Shown piece by piece: positions 27,343 to 53,843 of a DNA stretch of 55,534 nt. The notes under the pieces are model-generated. The model was not told where the DNA came from, ran no database searches, and was given only the letters and a program-made list of their open reading frames with translations. The translations under genes and the position numbers were made by a program. Position 1 is the stretch's first letter; the number at the start of each line of letters is the position of its first letter. The stretch lies in the IMG/VR virus record IMGVR_UViG_3300031277_000003, positions 1 through 55,534 of that record, one strand, 5' to 3'. Source of the stretch: a virus. Lineage: Duplodnaviria > Caudoviricetes.

Positions 27343-29319
27343 TTAGCTCCCGAAATCAATAGTATTTTTTGCCGTAACTTGCAACTTCAATCCATATTTA
27401 TTTATTTCAAATTGATTTCTTATTATTCTAAATTCTTCATAAGTTGATAATTTGGAATACGTTTCAATACTTGCGATATCCCCTATTTCGGTACACGGAT
27501 TCCCTTGAATAGTAATATCAATATCTCTCCTATTGTTTTTGAGTGATTGCAATAATGCGTCTGCTACTGATGCCGCAACAGTTGAATCCTGTATCAAATA
27601 ATTTTCTTTTAAATCATACTCCTGTTTATCGTATTTTGATTGTGATTCGGTATCCTCTGCTATTTCATTGTCAATTCCGACAACTGGAATTAGTTTTTTT
27701 CCGGTTATCTTATATTCAAAAGATCCTGATGTCCCTGATATTTTAGTAAATATAAGATTAGCTCCCCAAGGAAAATATTCTTCTGAAGTTAACGTCATTA
27801 CAACATCGGTATTGGTAATATCTACGCTGGCAAACTCATATACCGCATCATCTTCCCATTTAATATTTTGTTCAATCGATGTGTCTAAAGCCCCGACATC
27901 GATAGTATCAGAACTGTATATATCCCCGTCCTCTTCTTCTGGAGCAAGCGGGCATACAGGAACAATTATACTGTTTTTAACTTCTTTCATTTCCCTTCTT
28001 TTTTCAAAACAATCACCATGATCAATAGTAATGTCAGGATCTTCCGATACTTGATCTGCTGAATAAGATTCGATTACAATAACATCATCTCTATTGCAAT
28101 AACACCTACCAATACAGGCAGAAGCTATTTTTTTAAGCGCCTCGAAATAAGTTACCTTTCCCAACCATGCGTAATCTACCGTATAGCTTTCGAGTGAATC
28201 GTCAACACTCCAAGAAAGATCATTAAGTGGAATATTTACCTTTGCATGATTTAATACATATTCTGCAATTTCTTTCAGGTTTGTGCTTTCAAGTATTTCG
28301 TCGGCTTGGAAATAATTTTTTGACAATATATAAAGCCTGTCTCTTGCAGTAACAGACGCCGCAAACATACTTTCCGATGTATCCCAATTCGTGGACCAGA
28401 AAACTCCCATAGGGACATATTCAATAGATGTATCAGGCAATTTAAATCCGATATACGGAGTAATTCTCACATTTTGTGTTATTGAACTACTTAAATACGA
28501 ATCATCATTTTCGGGTAAATAGGGATTTTCTATATCTACCCCATCAACCGTAATCTCTATATTCTGAAGTTCAATTTTCATTTCATTACATGACATACAC
28601 CCAAAAGGAGAGTAACTTTCTTCTGATTCCGTTTCCTCAAGGATATTCATTGATACGACATCGCCACCATACAAGGTGCTCGTCAGCACTCCAAAAAATT
28701 CGACAATCTTTCCTATCGTACCGCTAGCAGACCATTGGTTTAATTTTAAAACCATGTACTTTGCTGTTGTTATATCGTCAGAAACAAAGTCGAGCATTGT
28801 CTCAACCGAAGTTCCGGCAAAATTGGTAACTGGATTCAAAAGAACATCGCCTTCATCATATATAAAAACGTCGAAGTCAACCGGGTATTCTTCCAACGTC
28901 GGTTCACCGACAACGATTAATTTTTTAATTGATCTTGCCTCCGCAAACTTGACGGTAAGTTCCGGCTCTTCGCTAAAAATACCGTCACTATCACTCACAT
29001 CTTCCGTATACCATCCAACTTGATTATAAGCCGCCTCTTCAACGGTCCCAGGAACAGGGTAGAAGGTTCCGTCATTTATAAGCGTCCCGTCATTAATAAC
29101 GTATTTGTGCGGTGTTGATAATTTAGTATCAACCGTATGCAATAATAAATCATCCACTACCGTTGATCCAAGATCACCAAAATTATTTACATCATCAGAG
29201 GTAACTTTATTACCTGATAAAACAAACGGATCAGTCCAAAGGAAATCTACCCTTACCTTTGGTTCTCTATCTGCGGCATTAGCGGCAGTAGTAAATTCAG
29301 CACTTGGAGCGGTTAACAT
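27343..29319 (-). CDS. Baseplate hub / tail tip protein
   Basis: YVPMGVFW...VTARD...GNPCTEIGD motifs; second gene after the tape measure gene. Confidence 0.75.
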   Translation of the reverse strand: MLTAPSAEFTTAANAADREPKVRVDFLWTDPFVLSGNKVTSDDVNNFGDLGSTVVDDLLLHTVDTKLSTPHKYVINDGTLINDGTFYPVPGTVEEAAYNQVGWYTEDVSDSDGIFSEEPELTVKFAEARSIKKLIVVGEPTLEEYPVDFDVFIYDEGDVLLNPVTNFAGTSVETMLDFVSDDITTAKYMVLKLNQWSASGTIGKIVEFFGVLTSTLYGGDVVSMNILEETESEESYSPFGCMSCNEMKIELQNIEITVDGVDIENPYLPENDDSYLSSSITQNVRITPYIGFKLPDTSIEYVPMGVFWSTNWDTSESMFAASVTARDRLYILSKNYFQADEILESTNLKEIAEYVLNHAKVNIPLNDLSWSVDDSLESYTVDYAWLGKVTYFEALKKIASACIGRCYCNRDDVIVIESYSADQVSEDPDITIDHGDCFEKRREMKEVKNSIIVPVCPLAPEEEDGDIYSSDTIDVGALDTSIEQNIKWEDDAVYEFASVDITNTDVVMTLTSEEYFPWGANLIFTKISGTSGSFEYKITGKKLIPVVGIDNEIAEDTESQSKYDKQEYDLKENYLIQDSTVAASVADALLQSLKNNRRDIDITIQGNPCTEIGDIASIETYSKLSTYEEFRIIRNQFEINKYGLKLQVTAKNTIDFGS

Positions 29320-34328: not shown

Positions 34329-35018
34329 TTAAGCCACTTTTCTCATTATTCTTCTGTTAAATTTATTAATATGATGCCTAAAACTCAAACAACAGTTTTT
34401 TCTTAAATCCTCATCGATTGAATAAATACTCAATCCTGTTTTCCATAATATAAAGGGGAAACTTATTTGATCTCTATAATGATCATTTAACGATATTTCA
34501 TTCCACCATAATTCCATTGCATCTGAAATTTCTTTTTCATTATGCCTTCGAAACAATACTCCGCATTCATAAAGACCGAATTTTTCAGGCATTCCAATTT
34601 TTATATATTCTTTTAAGTTATTAAAAATATGTGATATCTCACATTTATCAACTTCTATAACTCGCTCCATCTCTTTATAAATACAATTCCTTTTTGGGTG
34701 TAAATGCAATGCCATGTTATACCCATCAAGATAACTATTGCATTTATCTACAATATTATTTTTAGGAATTACATTCCCATCCACCCATATTGATATTTCG
34801 TAATCTTTAAATATCCTATGCGGTAATATCTTTGGATATTTTGCTATTAGAACAGGATTTTTTCCGTTAAATTCAAATGGCACTATCTTCCATATTTTTG
34901 ATCTTATAATTTGATCAGTAAAACATATATAGTCAACATTAGGTATCGGTTCGGGATCTCTTAAAATATCCTTTGTGTGACCTGCAATTGCCGTATATAT
35001 AACTATTTTGTTATTCAT
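34329..35018 (-). CDS. Glycosyltransferase-like protein (DUF616 / TOD1-MUCI70)
   Basis: IYTAI...DYICFTD...KILPH...SIWVDGN...HPKRNCIY...RDQISF. Confidence 0.85.
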   Translation of the reverse strand: MNNKIVIYTAIAGHTKDILRDPEPIPNVDYICFTDQIIRSKIWKIVPFEFNGKNPVLIAKYPKILPHRIFKDYEISIWVDGNVIPKNNIVDKCNSYLDGYNMALHLHPKRNCIYKEMERVIEVDKCEISHIFNNLKEYIKIGMPEKFGLYECGVLFRRHNEKEISDAMELWWNEISLNDHYRDQISFPFILWKTGLSIYSIDEDLRKNCCLSFRHHINKFNRRIMRKVA

Positions 35019-35080
35019 AAATTAATTCTTGCTCGATATTGCTATCGATATTTTTGAAAAAAGGAATTATTACAGATAAT

Positions 35081-35779
35081 TTATACAAATTTTCTCTCCA
35101 TTAAATCAATGTAAACTTCAGCGTCATCGCACCATTGCACCAATTTTAAATAATCTTTGTCCAGTTTATAGTATTGGATTAATCCACCAATTCCGGCATT
35201 TTCACGTCCAGGCATTCCCTTTATAGAACAATGAAGTTTTAAATCACGGCCATTCTTTAATAATCCAGTATTGTTTTTCCATAATCTTAAATCGATAGAA
35301 ATATTTCCCGGAATAGACTTTATCAAATTTGGAATAAATGACTTATTAAAAGCCGTTTGAGAAAGTGAAGCATGGGTATTTTTTCCCATTTCACGATAAC
35401 CGGGAACTTTCACATTGTAATAATTTGTTCCCCATAGCCCGACAAGATCACACTGTTCGAGAAGGCTATGCATAAAAAATATATAGCCATTAGAATACCA
35501 GTCATCATCTTCCATTATCAGTACATCATCACATTTAACTTCTGATAATGCGGCTAAAAGATTTCTTCCTATACTATACCCTGATTCATTTTTGCTTTTC
35601 TCTTTCCTGATATAATGAGCATATTCCGGCAACCCGTCAGTTCCGTATGGCGTATCACCATCATCAACGATAATCCATTGATCAGGTTTCATTATCTGAT
35701 TTTTCATCCACCGGTCACGCAACAGTCCGAACGCAAGCGGCCTGTCACCGGTTGGTGTTATGACGGTAATTCCGTTCAC
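35081..35779 (-). CDS. Glycosyltransferase family 2-like
   Basis: ITPTGDRP...WIIVDDG...IMEDDDWY. Confidence 0.85.
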   Translation of the reverse strand: MNGITVITPTGDRPLAFGLLRDRWMKNQIMKPDQWIIVDDGDTPYGTDGLPEYAHYIRKEKSKNESGYSIGRNLLAALSEVKCDDVLIMEDDDWYSNGYIFFMHSLLEQCDLVGLWGTNYYNVKVPGYREMGKNTHASLSQTAFNKSFIPNLIKSIPGNISIDLRLWKNNTGLLKNGRDLKLHCSIKGMPGRENAGIGGLIQYYKLDKDYLKLVQWCDDAEVYIDLMERKFV

Positions 35780-36318
35780 TTTAAAACATCCTCAAGGTTT
35801 GCAATTTCAAAACAATCCAATTCGGTATACCGGCTACAATTATAGATTTTAACACCAAGCTTTTTTGCAGAATCCGATACCCGCTTAAAATGGCCTTTCC
35901 ACATATTAACTTTATCTTTATTTGGATTGCGTAATTTTTTTCCGATATGATCACCGTGCCAGTGAATACCGTTTTTCAATGAGCAATCATACCCAAGAAG
36001 AGCAATATTTTTAAACCCTTTGAATATTCCGAACTGTATAGCACGCATACCGGAATTGTAGCCGCCTGAAGCGAAATGAAAATTTATTTTATACTTATTC
36101 GCTGCGGTTGTTGAACAGGTCCATTTTTCTACGTCAATATTTATTTTATTGAAATAGATATCCCACCATTTAGTATCACCGGCGTAAATATAGTCACAAA
36201 AAGAAGCGATTTCCCATGAGTTATTAACGGCAACGGTTTTTATACTGCTCTGTTTTACCAACTCACAATCATCAGCGGTAAGACTCGGCCCTGATGCTAT
36301 GCAGAAAAGATCAATCAC
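35776..36318 (-). CDS. Maf/DUF115 (GT29-like fold) transferase
   Basis: IASGPSL...AVNNSW...NSGMRAI...LLGYD...IYNCS. Confidence 0.7.
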   Translation of the reverse strand: MIDLFCIASGPSLTADDCELVKQSSIKTVAVNNSWEIASFCDYIYAGDTKWWDIYFNKINIDVEKWTCSTTAANKYKINFHFASGGYNSGMRAIQFGIFKGFKNIALLGYDCSLKNGIHWHGDHIGKKLRNPNKDKVNMWKGHFKRVSDSAKKLGVKIYNCSRYTELDCFEIANLEDVLK

Positions 36319-43436: not shown

Positions 43437-44744
43437 TTATTCCCGTGTATCCAGAACGATGAAATGCGACTGCGTATTGCTGCCTTTGTACGGGGTAAGC
43501 GCAGAAGCACGCCAAGGCTGTCCATCCATACGGAGGACAAACCGAAGAACGCTTTCATCATAAACGAACCGAACATGGATACTCATATCCTGTTTCAGCC
43601 CGCCCTTCTCCGCCATCAGATAACCGTCTCGAAAGTTGGCAAGGATAATATCACCCTGCGTTCCAAGGGTCGCACATTGCTCGATTGCATAGGCCGGAAG
43701 CCCCATGATACGACCGTAAGGGCTGACACTGAGGCCACCCGGAGGCATGTAAATGGGCGTTCCACCGGTACCGACAGCCGTGCTCATCAAGAACAACTGA
43801 GGCTCGATATCCTGATTGTAGTACCAAGCGTAGTTGGCAGTCTGCGCGGCGAACCGACGTGCGTACATATTCACGATATTTTCCGCCACTATTGTCGCTG
43901 CCGCCTGGCCGGTTTCTGCACCAACCGAGACAAGGCAGCCAGCGTTCATAATACCAAGTGCCATCCCGGCTCCAGAGCCATTGATGATATCATCCTGAAC
44001 CTGGAAATTGAAGGCAGACTGGAAGGCCGAACTCACGCGGGTTTCCATTGCCGGGGCATCCATCATCAGCTCATCGGTAAGATAACAAAGGCCTATAAGC
44101 TTTTTGAGTGAAAGCTCGACTTTGCGGAACTTCGGTTTGCTTGCAGTCTTTTCCCCGGCCTCTTCGTCATGATAAACGACAATCCCGCCGGCGGTGCTCG
44201 AAGCTCTCGATGTTTCATCGAATCCGTTCACCTTGATGCTATTTGAGTTGCCGGAAATAGGCAGCTTTTCGCACTGCCCGGCAATAAGGCCGTTACCGAA
44301 CAGGTCTTCGTAAAGTTTCGTAGTGAAATCTGACTGGACCAGAAATCCGCCCTCGGAGCCGACTGTCTCATTGAGTCCGGATGCGGCGTTATGAAGCCTC
44401 GGGTCAACATGACCGTTGGGTTTCCCGGCGTTGATAATCGCTCCAAGTTGTTCGCCAAGGCTATTGAATTTGTCGCGGTTTTTGTCGTTTTTGACTTCAA
44501 TTCTGGAGTCTTTCGGAACCGTCAGGGCATCACCGGGCTTTTCGAGTGCATCGGCAATGCGAAGTTCACGCTCACGGACCTTGATTTCGTCCTGTATCTC
44601 TTCGACCTTATCAAGCAATTCGGTTTTGAGATTTTTTTCAGCTTCTAAAAGACCGCGATTTTCCAACGTTGCCTTTGCATCGATATCGGCCGACGCTTTC
44701 ATCAACTGTTTCAACTCATCTTTGAGCTGGGTAATGGTTTTCAT
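43437..44744 (-). CDS. Major capsid protein (HK97 fold)
   Basis: Coiled-coil delta domain, EGGFLVQ, and IINGSGAGMALGI motifs. Confidence 0.95.
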   Translation of the reverse strand: MKTITQLKDELKQLMKASADIDAKATLENRGLLEAEKNLKTELLDKVEEIQDEIKVRERELRIADALEKPGDALTVPKDSRIEVKNDKNRDKFNSLGEQLGAIINAGKPNGHVDPRLHNAASGLNETVGSEGGFLVQSDFTTKLYEDLFGNGLIAGQCEKLPISGNSNSIKVNGFDETSRASSTAGGIVVYHDEEAGEKTASKPKFRKVELSLKKLIGLCYLTDELMMDAPAMETRVSSAFQSAFNFQVQDDIINGSGAGMALGIMNAGCLVSVGAETGQAAATIVAENIVNMYARRFAAQTANYAWYYNQDIEPQLFLMSTAVGTGGTPIYMPPGGLSVSPYGRIMGLPAYAIEQCATLGTQGDIILANFRDGYLMAEKGGLKQDMSIHVRFVYDESVLRFVLRMDGQPWRASALTPYKGSNTQSHFIVLDTRE

Positions 44745-45733
44745 ACTGCTTTCTCCTTTTGAGTTATTGATTTTGTTTTTTCCAACAATTCGACAACCGG
44801 GTCAACCAATTTTTTGGCCTCTTCAATATGGTCAACCGTGTCGCCCTCTTCACCTTGTGGCTTTTCACCAGCATCTCGCTGATCGGCACCGGTATCTTTT
44901 TGTGCATCTCGCACATCGGGATTATCGGGTTCGCTCCGGGCATCTCGCTCGTTACGAAAAACCTTTGCCACTATATCCTTGGCCTGATTCCGGGAATACC
45001 CTACATCTCGCAGGTTTTTCTCCAAATCACGCTCGTTAAGATCCTTTTTGTTATCGGTAGTTGCTTTATTTCGTATTTTCAGCCTGTCGGGTACGTTGTT
45101 ATATACCGATAGATCGTATTTTCCTTCAACAGGTTCACCGTCATACACTCGATCAACAAGGCCGATATCCAAAGCTTCTTGTGCGGTAAACCACGTTTCT
45201 TTATCCATATAATCAAGAAACTCGGAAGCTTCTTTACCGGTCTTTTTAGCGTAATCGTTCGCTATAGATTGATTTATTTTTTCATGAAGCGATATTTCTT
45301 TGTTTATACTTTCAACAAGTTCCTGCATTGACTTTATATTGAAATATCCCAACACGTCAAGAATACTTAATGCGTTATGTATCATTAAAAACCCGCCATC
45401 AACAATTTCGATTTCATCGGCGCCCATAACAAGAAACGATGCGGCAGAAGCAGCAAGGCCATCGATATGTGCGATCACCTTTGACTTATGCTGCATTATA
45501 GCGGTTTTCATCGCCCGCGCCGTGAAAATATCACCACCCCCGGAATCGACACGAAGATGGATAGTTTTAGCCTTTATCTCATTAAATTCTTTAATGAAAT
45601 CCGTTTGGTCAATTCCAAACCAGCCGCCTATATCACCGTAAAGGTAAATCGTAGCCTCATCGTCTTTGTTCTGAATATCTATCTTGTTTTCCATCCGGCG
45701 TGATGCCATTTTCCGCATTGTAATCATTTGCAA
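44741..45733 (-). CDS. ClpP-type prohead protease
   Basis: DSGGGD, DGLAASAAS (Ser), MIHN (His) and ETWF motifs. Confidence 0.92.
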   Translation of the reverse strand: MQMITMRKMASRRMENKIDIQNKDDEATIYLYGDIGGWFGIDQTDFIKEFNEIKAKTIHLRVDSGGGDIFTARAMKTAIMQHKSKVIAHIDGLAASAASFLVMGADEIEIVDGGFLMIHNALSILDVLGYFNIKSMQELVESINKEISLHEKINQSIANDYAKKTGKEASEFLDYMDKETWFTAQEALDIGLVDRVYDGEPVEGKYDLSVYNNVPDRLKIRNKATTDNKKDLNERDLEKNLRDVGYSRNQAKDIVAKVFRNERDARSEPDNPDVRDAQKDTGADQRDAGEKPQGEEGDTVDHIEEAKKLVDPVVELLEKTKSITQKEKAV

Positions 45734-45742
45734 AATCCTTTT

Positions 45743-47065
45743 TTAAGTTGCAAAAAGTTTCATTTTTTTAACAAATGTATTGTCAGGTTCACCCTCATCA
45801 GGATTGTTTTCATCCGGTTTAGGAGCTGAACCGTTTTGGTTTTTGCTCAAATATTCAGAGAACTTACTCAACGGTATATTGCCGGTAGGCGCCCAAAGTT
45901 CATCGGCAAGAGGATCATCACTTGGGTTCATATCCTCTTTTTCTCGGGCTTCGTTCGGCGTCATTATGGTACTGCCGATCATTAATTTGTAAAATTCCGC
46001 CCGTTCTTTTGAATTTGCCCGTAAAAGTCCCTCTAAAACGTGCTTGAAATACATCCCGGCTTCATATTGGCGTTTGCTTAATAGTTGCACATCGTATATC
46101 TGCTCAAGATGTATCGCCCACGGCAGAATCGTATCGATCACATACGAAGCGTTTTCCGCTTCGATATTATTGAACGATGATTTTGTCATGTCTTTTAGTT
46201 TATGCGGAGGGATGTTAAACCATCGGGCAATATCCGTGATATGGTGCTGTTTTGATTCCAAAAACTGCGAATCTTCAGGAGAAAAACCGATTTTTTCTAT
46301 CTTCATTGCCTCTTCGAGAAGCATTAATTTATGGGAATTGCCTAACCCGCTGTAAGTTTCGGTCAATGCACGCCTCATGTTATCATGTGCTTGTGCCGAC
46401 ATTGCCGGGCCAGGGTGCGACACTATTACCCCGGGGTGCGTTCCTTTTCCAAAGAAATTGGATGAGAACGTTTCCATTGCCATACCCCACCCGATATTTT
46501 TCCGAGCCATGGTAATGGGGGAATATCCGACAAGTCCGTCAAAGCCAAACCCGGCAATATGGAGTACTTTGTCACGTTTTAGGGTAATTTCGTCACTATC
46601 AACCCTGACATTATAAACAAGTTCCTTGTTTTCAAGCTTCGGAGTGACCCGGTTCGGCGTGATCGGCCATAGCTCAACGATGTCCCCGGTTCCATTCGTA
46701 ACCTTTTCAGCATACCCGTTGCCCCAAGTAAGGACATGGGACATAATGCATTCACGGCCTATTTTCGCCGTCATGAACGGGTTAAATTGAGTATGCATCA
46801 CCCGGTAAAGGCTATTTTCAGTCGCGTATCGCGTTTTTCTGCCCTTATGTTGCCGTAAATGGAGCGGGAGACTGCCGCAAGTCGATGAAATCTGGTAAAC
46901 AGCGTTCCAAACGGCGCTGTATGTCAGCGCATTGTACTCATTTACGTTTTCGCCGGAAGGGGTTTGAGATCCGTAGACGTTCCAAAATGCTGAACTCCAT
47001 GCCTTCGGATCATTCAAGGCAAGATCGTTTTTGAAGAACTTTTTAAGATTTCCGAAAAATCCCAT
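45743..47065 (-). CDS. Portal protein (HK97 family)
   Basis: WGNGYA, LHI...DGLVGYSPI, DSQFLE, SFNNIE and TPNEAR motifs. Confidence 0.95.
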   Translation of the reverse strand: MGFFGNLKKFFKNDLALNDPKAWSSAFWNVYGSQTPSGENVNEYNALTYSAVWNAVYQISSTCGSLPLHLRQHKGRKTRYATENSLYRVMHTQFNPFMTAKIGRECIMSHVLTWGNGYAEKVTNGTGDIVELWPITPNRVTPKLENKELVYNVRVDSDEITLKRDKVLHIAGFGFDGLVGYSPITMARKNIGWGMAMETFSSNFFGKGTHPGVIVSHPGPAMSAQAHDNMRRALTETYSGLGNSHKLMLLEEAMKIEKIGFSPEDSQFLESKQHHITDIARWFNIPPHKLKDMTKSSFNNIEAENASYVIDTILPWAIHLEQIYDVQLLSKRQYEAGMYFKHVLEGLLRANSKERAEFYKLMIGSTIMTPNEAREKEDMNPSDDPLADELWAPTGNIPLSKFSEYLSKNQNGSAPKPDENNPDEGEPDNTFVKKMKLFAT

Positions 47066-47207
47066 TAAGTACGCTCAATGGTTAAATTTGACCTTAAGCG
47101 GTCAATTCAACCTTAAACATACTTAAAAGTGTATAGAAATACGATGTTTTTTATACAGAAGTGTATAAAAACTGTGAAATATTAGGAAAATTTAGGAAAT
47201 TGATAGC

Positions 47208-47747
47208 TTATTGAGTAGCAAACGACCATGGAATTACCGGTAGAATACAGAGCAAAAATGGAATCGGCATAGCTTCACGTTTTATAATTGCACACGATAC
47301 CATGCCTGCAACACCGATGCCACCGATCGCAATTTGAACAATTCCGAGCCGTTTTCGCCCTGATTTAATCTGACAATATCCGGGTATCAACCCAAAAGCT
47401 GATTTTTTCTGCTGTTTAAACTCCGATGGGATATTGGTTGTGCGCCTCATCCCTGTGTTATCCAAATCGGCAATAATCATTTTATCGGTATACCCAGCAT
47501 GGCGATATTTGAACCAGCGTTCGCGTGAAATACCTATACTATCCCACGGGCATGAGTAATATTCGGTAATCCCGATTCCATTACCTATCAACAACCTGAT
47601 CGAATCTTCAGGCATACCATTTTTTTGAGCAATGGCATACTCCTTTGATGTAATCCCGAGCTTTTCCCACGGTTTAATGCTTTGTGTAAAATAATCTTGA
47701 GAGAAACAACAGGAAATCATAGCGAAAAGGATCAAGACTGACTTCAT
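47208..47747 (-). CDS. Exported or membrane protein
   Basis: Signal peptide, repeated PW.. LGI/IGI motifs and C-terminal TM helices. Confidence 0.7.
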   Translation of the reverse strand: MKSVLILFAMISCCFSQDYFTQSIKPWEKLGITSKEYAIAQKNGMPEDSIRLLIGNGIGITEYYSCPWDSIGISRERWFKYRHAGYTDKMIIADLDNTGMRRTTNIPSEFKQQKKSAFGLIPGYCQIKSGRKRLGIVQIAIGGIGVAGMVSCAIIKREAMPIPFLLCILPVIPWSFATQ

Positions 47748-47920
47748 TTTTTACCTTTCAATATCTCCTCGATTTTCTTCTCGTACTTCTCCGGGATATC
47801 AACGAAATCATTCAACCACTGGTTAAGGTATGCGTAAGATACTCCGATCATTCTGGAAAGGTCTTTCCTACTGATACCGGATTCTTCAATTCTTTTTTTC
47901 AGTTTTTTCATTTTACACAT
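47744..47920 (-). CDS. XRE/Cro-like HTH protein, 58 aa (not in ORF track)
   Basis: AAGGA RBS; IEESGISRKDLSRMIGVSYAYLNQWLN. Confidence 0.8.
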   Translation of the reverse strand: MCKMKKLKKRIEESGISRKDLSRMIGVSYAYLNQWLNDFVDIPEKYEKKIEEILKGKK

Positions 47921-47951
47921 TGTAAGTCCTTTTTTATAAAAATAATAGCTT

Positions 47952-48009
47952 GTCCTGTCTTGTCTCGTCTCGTCCAGTTCTGTCTAGTCATGTCATGTCT
48001 AGTCACGTT
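47952..48009 (-). repeat. Pentamer array 4 (GAC-NN x ~12)
   Basis: GTC (occasionally GTT) every 5 nt on the + strand. Confidence 0.9.
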
Positions 48010-48516
48010 TTATTTAAACAATTTAGTTAAATCCTCCAGTTTTGGCAACTCAGCTTTTCCTGATTCGAGGATATTGTCATGTGCTCTTTGAGTGCTGAAA
48101 AGGTGAATCGCTGAAAATTGAGCGGTTGCCGTAACGTGCTGTTTCTGCATCTCCGGTGTGAGTTCGGGAAGCTTAACGGTGTACAGCTTTCTTTTTGCCC
48201 GGTATGCCCGGCGTCTGATTGAATCAGTATCGCGGGAAGAATTCAATACAACCTCGTCGCCGTTCATGCACCTGATCTTGTGTTCCTTATACTGGCGTTC
48301 CCATACTACGCCGTGATTGTTGATGCAGTACCGGATTGCACTCAACAGTTTTCCGTAATGCGGAGTACCGACGGCAACTGAAAAACCGCATTTGATATTG
48401 AGTTGTTCATCAGTGAATTCGTTCCCCGGTTTTCCATTTTTCAGCGCGTCGATAAGCGCCGATGTGATTGGGTGCCGGTTCGATATGTGGTTAACTTCTT
48501 TGGTTTTTTCAAACAT
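48010..48516 (-). CDS. Hypothetical protein associated with the RAMP gene and pentamer arrays
   Basis: 168 aa, AAGGA RBS, flanked by arrays 3 and 4. The N-terminus may be wHTH-like. Confidence 0.8.
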   Translation of the reverse strand: MFEKTKEVNHISNRHPITSALIDALKNGKPGNEFTDEQLNIKCGFSVAVGTPHYGKLLSAIRYCINNHGVVWERQYKEHKIRCMNGDEVVLNSSRDTDSIRRRAYRAKRKLYTVKLPELTPEMQKQHVTATAQFSAIHLFSTQRAHDNILESGKAELPKLEDLTKLFK

Positions 48517-48542
48517 TTTGTTGTCCTTTGGTTAAAAATGAA

Positions 48543-48647
48543 GTCTTGTCCTGTCGGGTTTGGTCATGTCATGTCGCGTCTTGTCCAGTCAGGTCAAGTC
48601 GAGTCATGTCGAGTCCGGTCCTGTCGCGTCAAGTCGCGTCGGGTCCC
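48543..48647 (-). repeat. Pentamer array 3 (GAC-NN x 21)
   Basis: Strict 5-nt period of GTC on the + strand, with one GTT. Confidence 0.95.
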
Positions 48648-48687
48648 GGTTTATTTTAAATTGAATTATCATAGTTAAAGAAAACTT

Positions 48688-48765
48688 GTCTTGTCTTGTT
48701 GGGTCGGGTTTTGTCACGTCGCGTCCCGTCGGGTCCCGTCTGGTCTCGTCTGGTCCCGTCCCGTT
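48688..48765 (-). repeat. Pentamer array 2 (GAC-NN x 16)
   Basis: Strict 5-nt period of GTC/GTT on the + strand. Confidence 0.95.
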
Positions 48766-48775
48766 TATTTGACCA

Positions 48776-49342
48776 TTACTTATTGATGATAAACTTCTCA
48801 ACCGTGAACCGTCCGAAATACCCACCATTACGTGGACGGAAGAAACCGATTCCGATGAATTTACCAGCATGGCCCAGATATTCTTTGACCTTTTCCGGTT
48901 TATCGATCAGAATGGGGTCGAGCAGCATGATTTCAACATCCGCCTTCCACTCCTGAATTACCGGGAATGTTTTCCAGACGCGGGTACCTCCGCCCTTTTT
49001 GCCATCGGAAGGAACAAATAACCGCAACGGTTCAAAGGCTTCCGCTTTGACGCCGAGGCTTGCAGGCTGAACGCATAGGATACCGGCCTCGAAATGCTTC
49101 GTGTACGTTGCCTTGCCCTTGCCGGGGACCGTCTCGGATAGGTAGCGAGCGCAGTCCGATAGGCAGTTTTTAATCGCCATTGGCGGAATAAAAACAATGC
49201 CATCTTTGTCTACGTGCTGCCGTTCCCGCCAGGTGCGATCTTCATAAGCATCGTGATTTTCTCCAGTGTTCTTCTTGCTCTGTATTGCCCTCGATTGTCC
49301 GTAAGGGCTTGCGGATTTTAATGATGCAATTACGGTTACCAT
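48776..49342 (-). CDS. Stand-alone RAMP / Cas7-like RNA-binding protein
   Basis: N-terminal strand ending in SP, IPPMAIKNCL helix (compare IPGSSLKG), and C-terminal Gly-rich loop AGKFIGIGFFRPRNGGYFGRF. Confidence 0.75.
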   Translation of the reverse strand: MVTVIASLKSASPYGQSRAIQSKKNTGENHDAYEDRTWRERQHVDKDGIVFIPPMAIKNCLSDCARYLSETVPGKGKATYTKHFEAGILCVQPASLGVKAEAFEPLRLFVPSDGKKGGGTRVWKTFPVIQEWKADVEIMLLDPILIDKPEKVKEYLGHAGKFIGIGFFRPRNGGYFGRFTVEKFIINK

Positions 49343-49369
49343 ATAACCGCCTTTCTTTGTTAAAATGAA

Positions 49370-49514
49370 GTCCTGTCCTGTCTTGTCGAGTCATGTCGTG
49401 TCCCGTCTTGTCTGGTCACGTCTCGTCAAGTCCAGTCCCGTCATGTCCCGTCCGGTCCAGTCCGGTCATGTCGGGTCGGGTCAAGTCGGGTTGTGTCCCG
49501 TCTTATCCAGTCTG
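49370..49514 (-). repeat. Pentamer array 1 (GAC-NN x 29)
   Basis: GTC every 5 nt from 49370 to 49510, with two variant units. Confidence 0.95.
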
Positions 49515-49526
49515 TTTTTGTTATTA

Positions 49527-49555
49527 AATATAATATTAATAATAATAATATGCAA
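49527..49555 (-). promoter_or_regulatory. Sigma70-type promoter for the pentamer-array/RAMP operon
   Basis: TTGCAT-N17-TATATT on the minus strand; the predicted start is a few nt before array 1. Confidence 0.7.
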
Positions 49556-49593
49556 TGTTTTTCTATGAAAGTTGAAAAAAAGTAGAAAATTAA

Positions 49594-49938
49594 CTATGGA
49601 ATTACAAATAAGGTATCTGTTTTACCGACTACTAAATGCTGTATATATTTAGTTGTCAGTTTTTTACCATTTGAAATTACATCGGCGCTAAATATAGCGA
49701 CTACTGAATCTCCAGGATTTGCTTTTATTGATAAGCAAGTACTATCAGGATAAACGATTCCTACTGAATCCCCTTCAAGAAAAATTGTAGCCATATACCA
49801 TACAATTTTAAAATCAGTATTATTTATTGGAGAGTAGCACGTTGTAACAGTTTTTCGATTGTCTATTACAGGATTAATAACATTATTTTCCATACAAGTT
49901 ACTACAAACATTGATAGTATTATAATTATCGTTTTCAC
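49594..49938 (-). CDS. Putative lipoprotein
   Basis: MKTIIIILSMFVVTC signal ending in Cys. Confidence 0.6.
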   Translation of the reverse strand: MKTIIIILSMFVVTCMENNVINPVIDNRKTVTTCYSPINNTDFKIVWYMATIFLEGDSVGIVYPDSTCLSIKANPGDSVVAIFSADVISNGKKLTTKYIQHLVVGKTDTLFVIP

Positions 49939-49962
49939 ATATACCAGCCTTTTTTATATGAT

Positions 49963-50160
49963 TTATTTTTTCTTAAACCTGCACCGAATTATCGATTCCC
50001 GCGGAACCCGCACCGACCCGACTATTTTTTCACTCAAAAGGTGTCCATGCTCTATCCATAATCTGATGGTCCTTTCAGTGACTCCAAAATATTCTGCTAC
50101 TTCGAATACGGTGAACAGGCTTTTTTTCGGCAAAAGCGAATCGTCGCACTTTTCGCTCAT
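49963..50160 (-). CDS. MerR/excisionase-like HTH protein
   Basis: FTVFEVAEYFGVTERTIRLWIEHGHL...VRVPRES; ATGA-coupled start. Confidence 0.8.
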   Translation of the reverse strand: MSEKCDDSLLPKKSLFTVFEVAEYFGVTERTIRLWIEHGHLLSEKIVGSVRVPRESIIRCRFKKK

Positions 50161-50429
50161 ACCATCCGTCTCGAATTGAATTTGCACCGTGTAATAGAGC
50201 GCATCGGAATCCGCCCGTTCCGTTCCTCTAAATGGCCGTGGTCAATCCATACTTTTATGGTCGCCTCGGACGTTTTGAAGTGTTCAGCTGCTTCAAAATA
50301 AGAAACTTCCTTATCCGTTTCCTGTTCGACCGCTGCCGGTTTCGGCTGTTCCTGCTGTTCCGGTTCGTTGCTTTCTGCTGCTTTAACATCTTCATCCACT
50401 TTGTTTTTACTGCCCCTTGGTCGTGCCAT
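50157..50429 (-). CDS. HTH protein with AT-hook-like N-terminus
   Basis: RPRGSKNK followed by EAAEHFKTSEATIKVWIDHGHL. Confidence 0.75.
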   Translation of the reverse strand: MARPRGSKNKVDEDVKAAESNEPEQQEQPKPAAVEQETDKEVSYFEAAEHFKTSEATIKVWIDHGHLEERNGRIPMRSITRCKFNSRRMV

Positions 50430-50650
50430 TATTCCTCCTTATGTTTTGGTTCTGAACCGGCCTTGTAATAAATAGATTCTATCACCGGCACTCCGTTGTT
50501 GTTATGTGACGTTTTTTTTAATCTGAATTCGCGTCCTTCATTTTCAAAATCATTCAAAGCTGAAAAAAAACCCTACTTACTCTGATTCCATCAACGATTA
50601 TAACATCTGCATCGTGCGGGACCGTGTATTCAATCATTGTTCCTCCTGTT

Positions 50651-50896
50651 TTATATTTTTTTAATAGAACATTCTTTGAACCAACCTTCATTTAGCTTTT
50701 TACCTATAAACCATTGGCAAAGATACCTACCGTCATGGTGACAGCTAGATATTCCAGTGAATACCATTTTAGGACCACCGGTTTTTAAACGAACGAAATC
50801 ACCAGTATTGATATCATTATTAAAAAAACTTGTGTGCAACTGTTTGCCATTGAATGCAATTACATCAACATTTTTTGGAACCTCATGAATTACCAT
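50651..50896 (-). CDS. YodC/DUF2158-family protein
   Basis: GDFVRLKTGGPKMV...CQWF. Confidence 0.75.
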   Translation of the reverse strand: MVIHEVPKNVDVIAFNGKQLHTSFFNNDINTGDFVRLKTGGPKMVFTGISSCHHDGRYLCQWFIGKKLNEGWFKECSIKKI

Positions 50897-51345: not shown

Positions 51346-51837
51346 TTATTGCAATCTGTACATTATTATTCCATCAACAAAGCCATATTTCAATGCAGAT
51401 GATGCATTGAAACACGTTTCATTATCCATCATTCTTGAAATATCTTCCCGTTGAATAGAAAGCCCTCTTGTCATATAAGCATCTATAATCATAGATTTTA
51501 TTTGACGCAATATATCACTTGAATATGTGCTTTTATCCAAAGAGTAAACACATGGGTTTTTAATAATAATATTAGATTTTGGTGTCATATATATTTTTTT
51601 ACCTGCCATTGCAATAACTGAAGCTATTCCGGCTACAATACCATCAATTATGACCGTGGTGTCATATTCATAATTTTTAATTAAATTGTAAATGGAAAAA
51701 CCTTCAAATACTTCACCGCCATTTGAATTTATTTCAATTTCAACATTGCTATTCGATTCTATATACAAATAGTCACGCCATTTATTTGCTGTATGACAAC
51801 CATTACCTATTTCTCCACTTAAAATAATCTTTTTCAT
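51346..51837 (-). CDS. Second ClpP-like protein, catalytically degenerate
   Basis: INSNGGEVFEG present, but DGIVAGIAS (Ser to Gly) and IIKNP (His to Lys). Confidence 0.75.
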   Translation of the reverse strand: MKKIILSGEIGNGCHTANKWRDYLYIESNSNVEIEINSNGGEVFEGFSIYNLIKNYEYDTTVIIDGIVAGIASVIAMAGKKIYMTPKSNIIIKNPCVYSLDKSTYSSDILRQIKSMIIDAYMTRGLSIQREDISRMMDNETCFNASSALKYGFVDGIIMYRLQ

Positions 51838-52070: not shown

Positions 52071-53843
52071 TTACAATGCCATCCTACTCATAATTTCGTT
52101 GTATTCCATCTCTTCATAAACCGACTTAACCGGATCTTGGTTTTCAACCGTTAACCCCACAGCCATTAACAGCGCAACCATATCGTCTATCTTATCGGCA
52201 GACTTCTTGCGGTCCGGCGCCATATTCAGATTAACGTCTCTCCGCGTAACGATATTCGAGGCACACCAGTTTAAAACCGGATCACCACCATGTTTTATTT
52301 TACCCGATACGTACAGCTTTTCCAGCTTTTTCATTGCCGGGTGATAACTCTTTGTTCCCTGGATAAATTCAACGAGATTGATATTTTCTTTTATTAAATT
52401 GTTTGCCAGTTCGGTTGCGTTCCACCGGTCGAAAGCTATTTTTTGTATTTTAAACCTCGAATTTAACGCCTTAATATCCGCCTCTATCACATCGTAATCA
52501 GTTACATTGCCTTCAGTTCGTTTGATCAATCCAGCACTTACCCAGGCGGCATATGGGACGGTCCCGCGCTCGGTGCGGTACTTGATTGCATCCTCCGGGC
52601 ACCATCGCCAACCGTAGGTAAAATACAGGCCGTCTACTTCCCATAGCAACCGGAGCGCCGCAAGGTCCATCGTGCTTGCCAGATCAAGCCCGCCGTAGCA
52701 GGGATAATCTTTGAGAAATTCAAGGTCGATTTCCGACGAACAGGCCCGCCATTTAATCAGGTCAATCCATCCTCCAGCGGTCGATGCCTGCCGGTTGAGC
52801 CGTTTAATTTTAAATTCGGCAAGCTTTGACGGCATCTGTTTAGCTTCGATCGCCTCTTTCCGTATCGCTGCAAGCAGATAAGGGTTACACTCTATCAGCG
52901 GGTTGGCCTTTACCCATTTCGATTCATCGAAATCATCATCCCCTTTTATCCCGGCAGTCTTATCCTCATCATCGACCGCCCAGAATAGCGCGAGAAAATG
53001 ATCTGCGTCGTTTCCGAATACCCCAAGAAGCAGCTTTTTCGCAAAGTCCCGTAATTCCCCCCATGGTCCCGGCGACGTGTACCCCTCGGTGGTAGTATAC
53101 AGCCATAACGGGTTAGAACGTGCCCCTGCCGCCGACGTAAGTACGTTCAGCAGGTCAGCGGTCTTGTGGGCGTGTATCTCATCCAGCGCGGTATGGGAAG
53201 GGTTTAACCCGTCCTGCGTGCTTGCCTTTGCATTTATAGGTTTAAAACTCGCGCCAGTTTCGTATCTTGTTATTGAATTTGCCCATGTTTTTAAATTAAA
53301 CGCTTCCCGCAGATCCGGAGTTTTATCCACCATCTTATATGCTGGAGTCCAAACTTTACGAGCTTGATCTCCTGTGGTTGCAGCGCTAATTATTTGAGCC
53401 CCTGGCTCTGGTTCACAAGACATACAATAAAGCATAATACATGCTGCAAGAGTTGATTTTGCATTTTTTCTGGCAATTGCAAAAAGTGCAGACGTAAATC
53501 TTCTTGGATAAAATAATCCGCATTCTCCATAATCAGGTATTTTTAATGGAACTCGCAACCTAAAACCAAATAATTGAACAACAAATAAAACATGCGATGG
53601 ATGCAATATTATATTTGGCGTTTCCCATGTTCCCTCGACATGCGGAAGCTTTTCTATAAAATCACAGGCATTATCGGCGTGCCACTTATCGAACTTAAAG
53701 GCACAATCTTTTTTATTTGCCCGCTTTAGATCGTCTAAAAACCGTTGCGCTGCAAGCCGTATCCATCGGCCATGCCGTTTGTGTTTTTTGTCGGCAATGG
53801 CTTTTTTGGCGTACTCTATGGCTATCGATGTATAATCTTTCAC
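52071..53843 (-). CDS. terL: Terminase large subunit
   Basis: ARKNAKST Walker A, LDEIH, GLDLAS and DKIDD motifs. Confidence 0.95.
   Translation of the reverse strand: MKDYTSIAIEYAKKAIADKKHKRHGRWIRLAAQRFLDDLKRANKKDCAFKFDKWHADNACDFIEKLPHVEGTWETPNIILHPSHVLFVVQLFGFRLRVPLKIPDYGECGLFYPRRFTSALFAIARKNAKSTLAACIMLYCMSCEPEPGAQIISAATTGDQARKVWTPAYKMVDKTPDLREAFNLKTWANSITRYETGASFKPINAKASTQDGLNPSHTALDEIHAHKTADLLNVLTSAAGARSNPLWLYTTTEGYTSPGPWGELRDFAKKLLLGVFGNDADHFLALFWAVDDEDKTAGIKGDDDFDESKWVKANPLIECNPYLLAAIRKEAIEAKQMPSKLAEFKIKRLNRQASTAGGWIDLIKWRACSSEIDLEFLKDYPCYGGLDLASTMDLAALRLLWEVDGLYFTYGWRWCPEDAIKYRTERGTVPYAAWVSAGLIKRTEGNVTDYDVIEADIKALNSRFKIQKIAFDRWNATELANNLIKENINLVEFIQGTKSYHPAMKKLEKLYVSGKIKHGGDPVLNWCASNIVTRRDVNLNMAPDRKKSADKIDDMVALLMAVGLTVENQDPVKSVYEEMEYNEIMSRMAL

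Follow-up and report, generated by a model that had tools for sequence, protein, structure and literature searches.

The genome of a tailed phage (IMG/VR virus record IMGVR_UViG_3300031277_000003; the record was analysed as a whole, and its 55,534 bases are called the window below) contains four arrays of a 5-nt unit that lie among small genes on a single strand. The question raised by this locus is whether the two bases that differ from unit to unit carry information, as had been suggested in a first-pass annotation made from the letters alone, or whether the arrays are binding sites, RNA leaders or simple repeats. We conclude, with a probability of roughly 85%, that positions 47744-49569 hold a cassette of the VIPR (Viral Interference Programmable Repeat) type, in its GAC/NN variant.

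VIPR was first described in 2026 as a CRISPR-like DNA-silencing device of phages (10.64898/2026.04.26.720920). According to the accessible parts of the preprints, experiments with GGY/NN vrRNAs have shown that the fixed trinucleotides serve as scaffold and the dinucleotides as information and that the 3' end is conserved (10.64898/2026.04.26.720920; 10.64898/2026.04.26.720927). Vipr, a small phage RAMP, polymerises with one protomer per 5-nt unit and flips out the GGY (10.64898/2026.04.26.720920; 10.64898/2026.04.26.720927; 10.64898/2026.10.15.759431), and the NN letters of the vrRNA pair with dsDNA in which every third base is skipped, whereby competing phages and satellites are silenced (10.64898/2026.04.26.720920).

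Arrays with a fixed core and two variable positions

The four arrays span positions 47952-49514 and are built from the unit NN+GAC on the minus strand (GTCNN on the plus strand). Array 1 (49370-49514), which precedes the gene here called vipr (gene A) as part of its leader and is putatively a vrRNA gene, has 29 units, 27 of them with a perfect core, and array 2 (48688-48762; 15 units, 13 perfect) lies directly 3' of the vipr stop codon. Array 3 (48543-48647; 21 units, 20 perfect) is found in the leader of a vap-like gene and array 4 (47952-48006; 11 units, 10 perfect) in that of a small HTH gene. Arrays 1, 3 and 4 stop 24-31 nt 5' of the start codon of a minus-strand gene, and array 2 has no gene directly downstream. 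The pattern GTCNNx3+GTC, with at most one mismatch allowed, occurred 63 times in the window where 0.08 occurrences were expected; all 63 were located within the four arrays, and the maximum in 100 shuffles of the window was 2. A phase-aware scan found zero arrays of this kind on the opposite strand of the window.

The core letters over the 76 units were G in 71, A in 76 and C in 75, corresponding to 1.65, 2.0 and 1.9 bits of information, and the two N positions carried 0.03 and 0.01 bits. The core was a perfect GAC in 70/76 units and degenerate in 6/76. The minus-strand NN series that had been read off the 29-unit and 21-unit arrays in the first-pass annotation were reproduced letter for letter, and its statement that most of the dinucleotides are used can be extended to all 16. 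Its remark that the arrays differ from each other was likewise borne out, the longest NN run common to any two arrays being 2 consecutive units. Adjoining units had the same NN in 8/72 cases, with 5.7 expected. Given that variation is limited to two of the five positions, neutral decay of a simple repeat is excluded as the source of the pattern; neutral repeat decay of the NN letters had been named beforehand as one outcome that would speak against an informational reading, and both this distribution of the variation and the replacement of NN letters in relatives (see below) went against it.

The first-pass annotation had also considered that the 29-unit array might be two guides in tandem. 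Nothing in the sequence supports such a split: all units of this array are in one phase, and it contains neither an internal tail nor a handle-like stretch with T-rich sequence after it. Long arrays recur in the class, with at least 20 units in 13 of 81 arrays and a maximum of 34 among the listed loci, the set of 81 comprising every distinct array with 8 or more units at those loci in which an ORF of the Vipr family is present. The RNA of array 1 (49343-49540, minus strand) was predicted to fold far better than its shuffles (z = -4.81). This value is not evidence of structure, since the C-NN-G four-mers of the repeat can pair with units of complementary NN, and the folding probably follows from the way the repeat is built.

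At the 3' end, array 1 closes with the units AA AG AG and the other arrays with AA AA, AG AA and AA AG, which confirmed the earlier remark that all four end in AA/AG units. Between array 1 and the vipr start codon (49343-49369, minus strand) there are a short T-rich tail (TTCATTTTAAC...) and the ribosome-binding region. The tail of array 3, TTCATTTTTAACC, is similar to that of array 1; arrays 1 and 3 have TTCATTTT(T)AAC in common, and arrays 2 and 4 continue with AAG and then T-rich sequence. None of the tails had a significant predicted fold (z-scores of -0.57 for the array 1 tail and -0.01, +0.45 and +1.91 for the others), and the tails of relatives were also short and clade-specific. In the 81 arrays, among the listed loci, the last unit was AA or AG in 40 (49%) against 17% of 1,163 units overall; the second-last unit was AA or AG in 30%, and the third-last was at background. 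The conserved 3' handle proposed in the first-pass annotation therefore stands as an AA/AG end bias that holds class-wide, and it shrinks to one to three A-rich units and a short, T-rich tail that lacks a significant predicted fold. A conserved 3' end exists, yet it is small and unlike the pseudoknot tail of SUSP1. Directly after the array 1 tail, a 6-bp hairpin (CGGTTA...TAACCG) at 49333-49349 on the minus strand encloses the vipr start codon; this hairpin could affect translation or mark an RNA end.

Genes of the cassette and the surrounding phage genome

Every gene in the cassette region is on the minus strand, and the order on this strand is promoter-like match, array 1, vipr, array 2, promoter-like match, array 3, the vap1-like gene, array 4 and the HTH gene. 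Array 1 is preceded by an AT-rich stretch with a sigma-70-like promoter match (TTCATA-16-TATTAT; 49542-49569, minus strand) about 28 bp upstream; this consensus match is a candidate start of a vrRNA1-vipr transcript. The 40-bp spacer between arrays 2 and 3 contains further minus-strand promoter-like matches, again by consensus only (AAGACA-16/18-GATAAT/TATGAT; 48665-48697). The number of promoter consensus sites in the region was 12, compared with 7.4 +/- 3.2 in shuffles.

The vipr gene (48776-49342, minus strand) encodes a Cas7-like RAMP of 188 aa that is predicted to be a vrRNA-binding filament protein. When the family profile of gene A (A1) was compared with 177,635 PDB sequences, there was one significant match, 36pp_D, 'SUSP1 Vipr protein' (E = 1.2e-4), the next being at E = 0.44. 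The same profile found the vipr ORF of phiSUSP1 (28474-29061, E = 9.9e-7) and also matched Pseudomonas phage LESphi2 (1.4e-13) and Gordonia phage Trine (1.6e-10); the vipr ORFs of these three phages each have flanking GGY/NN arrays on their own strand. The match to SUSP1 was limited to the C-terminal half, with the G-loop included (profile positions 99-182). Gene A has a glycine-rich loop, GIGFFRPRNGGYFGRF, at residues 164-179, in which G164, R169, P170, G174, G177, R178 and F179 were invariant across 34 family members, and its R-P and G-(R)-F align with R179-P180 and G183-F185 of SUSP1. In the structural model of gene A, strands 104-111 and 121-129 form a long beta-hairpin with a GGG loop, where SUSP1 has its thumb residues R133-R138. 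The gene is intact, and every family-invariant residue is present. Gene A has a RAMP fold and is related in sequence to the SUSP1 Vipr, whose structure is solved. The arrays had at first been read as DNA iterons, as a Rho/rut site or as a leader of the TRAP kind, and these readings were dropped once this relationship was found.

The gene that follows (gene B, 48010-48516, minus strand) encodes 168 aa with a winged-helix-like N-terminal domain and then long helices. Its AF2 model (pLDDT 85.1) starts with the order H-E-H-H-E-E, followed by the long helices, and a Foldseek search with this model gave no PDB match at E <= 0.001, the best hit being at E = 0.03 and the matches being mostly regulators of the MarR/ArsR/GntR type. 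An hhalign comparison of the 11-member gene B profile with the gene after vipr in LESphi2 gave a probability of 88% and E = 3e-6 over 120 columns, and the comparison with vap1 of SUSP1 was weaker (46%, E = 2e-4). BLASTP gave nothing. The profile comparisons and the model suggest that gene B encodes a distant Vap1-like DNA-binding accessory protein. The 58-aa protein encoded next (47744-47920, minus strand) is a Cro/C1-type HTH protein (Pfam HTH_3, E = 2.1e-7; transcriptional regulators in PHROGs) and is possibly a further accessory gene of the cassette; a 179-aa lipoprotein-like gene, also on the minus strand, is located downstream of it.

Genes A and B had no match in Pfam, NCBIfam or PADLOC, and in PHROGs they matched only phrog_4652, a family without an assigned function. 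The relatives of gene A numbered 2,121 at E <= 0.001, and none of the 120 listed carried a Pfam domain or a name. Both proteins come out as 'hypothetical' with all libraries tested, and an annotator might take the arrays for microsatellites. Homologues at 89% and 78% identity (P0002, P0122) exist.

Besides a replication module, the phage has a structural module with genes for both terminase subunits (small and large), the portal, a protease, the major head protein, the tail and the tape measure. The cassette is located in an accessory insert of about 5 kb, which has the large terminase (52071-53843) on one side and the portal (45743-47065) on the other. No long-period array was found in the 55.5 kb by Tandem Repeats Finder, so there is no CRISPR array. 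PHROGs and Pfam searches with the ORFs of the window returned phage replication and structural genes only and no cas genes, PADLOC returned none, and Rfam gave no match on 47000-50500 at E <= 1. The accessory insert also carries small HTH_17/MerR-like genes (49963-50429) and a DUF2158 gene (50651-50896). Two genes resemble ClpP-type head-maturation proteases (51346-51837 and 44741-45733), one of which is a bare protease domain of 163 aa inside this insert. Glycosyltransferase-like and alpha-2,3-sialyltransferase-like genes are found within the structural module at 34329-36318 (PHROGs, E = 3.6e-19 and 3.1e-51).

Relatives, targets and alternative readings

A scan of viral contigs for 7xGTCNN gave at least 140 loci, many with several arrays. 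When the ORFs of loci with flanks were clustered, 40 flanked loci had a member of the gene A family, with 24 distinct proteins in all, and 25 had a member of the gene B family, among the matches listed; loci on the same contig overlap in these counts, and some ORFs of the first cluster cross arrays and may be spurious. The order arrays, gene A (family F0), arrays, gene B (family F2), arrays was repeated in related loci. The MAGs that hold Vipr relatives carry at least 8 unrelated phylum or class labels, and the clusters of TerL look-alikes were mostly from Pseudomonadota.

Two closely related loci were compared in order to see how the NN series behave among relatives, as the first-pass annotation had proposed. 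The loci L040 and L057 show 95.7% identity across 2183 nt, and their array flanks are near-identical, whereas their arrays have 34 and 26 units in one case and 14 and 13 in the other, with mostly different NN. Turnover is thus focused on the NN letters, and judged from these sequences such a focus is what is expected of a guide under changing selection and not of a meaningless spacer. The proposal that the variable NN body is information agrees with the published vrRNA model and is supported by this 96%-identical pair. A second pair, L006 and L037, is 99% identical and differs by one whole array plus spacer: the extra array of L006 (3292-3396, with a 34-bp spacer) is missing in L037. This array agrees with its neighbour in the three NN units at its start and in a run of four NN units close to its 3' end, and it looks as if it arose by recombination between arrays. 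Locus L006 has four stacked arrays in a row without intervening genes.

Since GAC and GTC are reverse complements, the GAC core alone does not fix the strand of the RNA. Asymmetric cores of relatives lie on the vipr strand, namely GGC (L149/L150, SUSP1, LESphi2 and Trine), CGC (L155) and CTC (L154), and for this reason the minus strand was taken as the RNA strand, as it had been in the first-pass annotation. Some relatives (L148, L069/L070) have GTC/NN on the vipr strand, so both GAC and GTC cores exist. Relatives of gene A at 43-60% identity are accompanied by GAC, GGC, GTC, CGC, CTC or GA(H) cores. The loci at 43-50% identity with other cores are L155 (3937-5218; CGC), L154 (1405-3098; CTC), L148 (1150-1350; GTC), L152 (250-1300; GA(T/A/C)) and L149/L150 (GGC), and several of their arrays again end in AA units. 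Residue 167 (F here, R in the GGC relatives) was considered as the residue that sets the second core base and was rejected, because loci with GAC and GTC arrays carry F, S, V, R or Y at this position. The gene A family constitutes a natural series for mapping the residues that set the fixed trinucleotide.

Gapped matches were compared with shuffled controls, the check proposed in the first-pass annotation, where a lack of matches above such controls was named as speaking against the informational reading; with exact seeds and local scans the outcome was negative, and no target above chance emerged. With one skipped base, the matches of the four guides to the phage itself and related loci (543,464 bases) equalled those of unit-shuffled controls; on the same bases, skips of 0 and 2 were also at control level and a skip of 3 merely recovered the arrays themselves. 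The best self-matches with 1-nt skip in the window (33/58, 20/30, 25/42 and 17/22) equalled shuffled controls, and sub-guides of 8, 10 and 12 units were at control level within the window, with no near-match. One match of array 4 at skip 0 reached 15/16 (control maximum 14) and was located in an AT-rich stretch. For 150 guides from all loci with 1-nt skip, 32 real and 31 shuffled matches were obtained at a match of at least 0.8. Self-targets were absent, as reported for published VIPR systems in the accessible text of 10.64898/2026.04.26.720920.

The searches of large collections comprised 8 exact seeds under one skip rule, so that targets with mismatches inside the seed would escape them. Seven 9-unit exact seeds with 1-nt skip gave 0, 0, 1, 0, 0, 7 and 0 matches in viral contigs, and extension of these matches was at chance level (11/40 and 1-4 of 12). 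One 10-unit exact seed in metagenome contigs hit two identical loci (L158/L159, 301-329). As a target of array 3 these loci were counted as chance, given that the flanks matched at 6/22 and that about one such match was expected. The match covers array 3 units 6-15 exactly and its skipped bases fall on third codon positions of an open frame, for which PHROGs gave no match. Because only exact seeds and limited collections were used, the absence of target matches is weak evidence.

One alternative is a true VIPR relative that is inactive or orphaned, its guides having no living targets or its arrays being in decay. Such a state would account for the lack of a target in any search and for the six degenerate cores, but 70/76 cores are perfect, vipr is intact and retains the family-invariant residues, and the target searches were restricted to exact seeds in limited collections. 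We regard inactivity as improbable.

It is also conceivable that the arrays act in cis as RNA leaders, with Vipr or another oligomeric RNA-binding protein coating NNGAC and the NN letters being meaningless, so that translation or termination of vipr, the vap gene and the HTH gene would be controlled in a TRAP-like manner. On the trp leader RNA of Bacillus, the TRAP site consists of a triplet plus a 2-nt spacer, (G/U)AG-NN, with one subunit bound per repeat, and the arrays described here are like it in being repeats of a triplet with 2-nt spacing in 5' leaders, three of them ending shortly before start codons; the empty seed searches are compatible with such a role as well. They are unlike TRAP sites in having GAC as their core, a RAMP as their partner and NN spacers that are hypervariable even when close relatives are compared, and a Pfam search found no TRAP-like family among the neighbouring proteins. 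Meaningless NN letters should moreover drift like the flanks, but the 96%-identical relatives keep their flanks and replace their NN and unit numbers. The stacked gene-less arrays (four in L006) and array 2, which has no gene directly after it, also argue against a leader function, and the homologous SUSP1 system has been shown experimentally to target DNA in trans, according to the accessible text of 10.64898/2026.04.26.720920. An exclusive role in cis is decidedly improbable on this evidence; autoregulation in cis and guiding could coexist.

That the arrays are dsDNA binding sites (iteron-like, operator-like or for partition) for gene B or the small HTH protein would fit the two predicted DNA-binding proteins of the cassette and the promoter-like sites that overlap arrays. 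A 5-bp period would, however, place successive sites on opposite helix faces; the strand asymmetry follows the RAMP gene in relatives (GGC, CGC and CTC on the vipr strand), and the most widely co-occurring partner is an RNA-binding RAMP and not gene B (40 against 25 loci, among the matches listed). This explanation is very improbable.

Ordinary pentanucleotide microsatellites, born by slippage and decaying neutrally, would be short-period tandem repeats whose unit number differs among relatives, as here, but this reading is refuted by the confinement of variation to two positions (0.01-0.03 against 1.65-2.0 bits) and by the NN turnover between L040 and L057, and it also conflicts with adjoining units that are no more alike than chance and with the recurrence of arrays beside one protein family in many unrelated contigs.

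Proposed mechanism and comparison with known systems

For the VIPR reading, homology with the SUSP1 system suggests that each array would be transcribed in the vipr direction into a vrRNA, with one Vipr protomer on every 5-nt unit. Protein pockets would take up the flipped fixed trinucleotide, which is GAC here and GGY in SUSP1, and the two variable bases of each unit would be displayed and would pair with dsDNA that has those dinucleotides between skipped bases, of which there is one in SUSP1. The filament would then block transcription of a competing mobile element. By this analogy the arrays would be transcribed and their transcripts processed, Vipr would bind RNA of the GAC/NN type, and the 1-nt skip rule would apply to the GAC/NN variant as well. 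Guides of 29-34 units would give footprints of 87-102 bp.

The closest known system is the type II VIPR of Escherichia phage SUSP1 (Vipr, Vap1 and four vrRNAs; PDB 36pp). As in SUSP1, the effector is a stand-alone RAMP of small size (188 aa, compared with 195 aa in SUSP1) that has the conserved G-loop motif RP...G(R)F, encoded in a two-gene vipr-vap operon, and the 5-nt arrays, with three fixed and two variable letters, lie on the coding strand on both sides of the genes. Both systems are phage-encoded, without a CRISPR array or other cas genes and without self-targets. Unlike SUSP1, the core is GAC (70/76 units) and the canonical GGY is missing here, which fits the GAC/NN class in the accessible text of 10.64898/2026.10.21.760802. 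The arrays can also be longer, with as many as 29 units in this phage and 34 in its relatives where SUSP1 has 9-16, and the short T-rich tails, without significant predicted fold, differ from the SUSP1 pseudoknot tail of about 40 nt.

The two Vipr proteins are only about 23% identical, and their alignment was anchored on R133-V134, P139, W144, R179-P180, G183 and F185 (SUSP1 numbering). According to the accessible text on the structure, H17, D177, R138 and W178 of SUSP1 hold G1 and G2 and R179 stacks on the pyrimidine (10.64898/2026.04.26.720927). The N-terminal helical region and the thumb of SUSP1 Vipr form the pocket that sets the one-base skip. In the alignment, D177, R138 and W178 correspond to F167, F126 and F168 of gene A, H17 lies where gene A lacks about 15 residues, and R179 is retained. 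The N-terminal helical region is about 15 residues shorter than in SUSP1, and the gene A clade has a clade-specific insert, PGKGKATYTKHF. Given these remodelled residues and the altered N-terminal region, the GAC/NN clade could read DNA by another register or skip rule. A role as cis-regulator could be added, since three of the four arrays are located in the leaders of vipr, the vap gene and the HTH gene. Another register, partial use of the long array or a role in cis would explain the empty seed searches with 1-nt skip, and the clade may in these respects be more than a relabelled SUSP1 system, which we consider unlikely.

Both the VIPR kind of system and the GAC/NN variant are already in print, as far as the accessible parts of the preprints go. 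The 2026 preprints divide 667 classified systems into seven types (I-VII). The discovery paper permits 'a related consensus', and its accessible text names only NNNGG, YNNNG and NNNNG (10.64898/2026.04.26.720920); 'GAC' occurs 0 times in the accessible texts of 10.64898/2026.04.26.720920 and 10.64898/2026.10.15.759431. A survey of intergenic regions by entropy periodicity reports 21 clusters and 6,318 sequences with non-canonical 5-nt arrays, among them GAC/NN, CAC/NN, WGT/NN and TGH/NN cores, which adjoin Vipr-like folds and were read as divergent VIPR (10.64898/2026.10.21.760802). The same unit is thus found there beside a Vipr-like fold, and the accessible text of the survey presents it as clusters only, without targets or experiments. 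In the accessible parts of the 2026 VIPR preprints, the experiments to date concern GGY/NN guides only, and no experiment or target analysis on GAC/NN was found. The present phage offers a compact and intact GAC/NN example, in which a single vipr gene and a single vap1-like gene are accompanied by four arrays with 11-29 units each, and the series of cores in its relatives would allow the universality of the one-base-skip code to be tested.

VIPR systems have been proposed as ancestors of the CRISPR RAMP effectors and represent a new way of programming DNA binding. The class 1 CRISPR systems, whose Cas7 backbones include Csm3, Cmr4 and the type VII Cas7, differ from the cassette described here, which has no Cas5, Cas6 or large subunit and no adaptation genes; neither an array with a period of 60-80 nt nor a multi-gene cas operon, both typical of class 1, was found in the window. 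The period itself also separates the two kinds of filament, being 5 nt with three flipped bases in VIPR and 6 nt with one flipped base in the Cas7 family.
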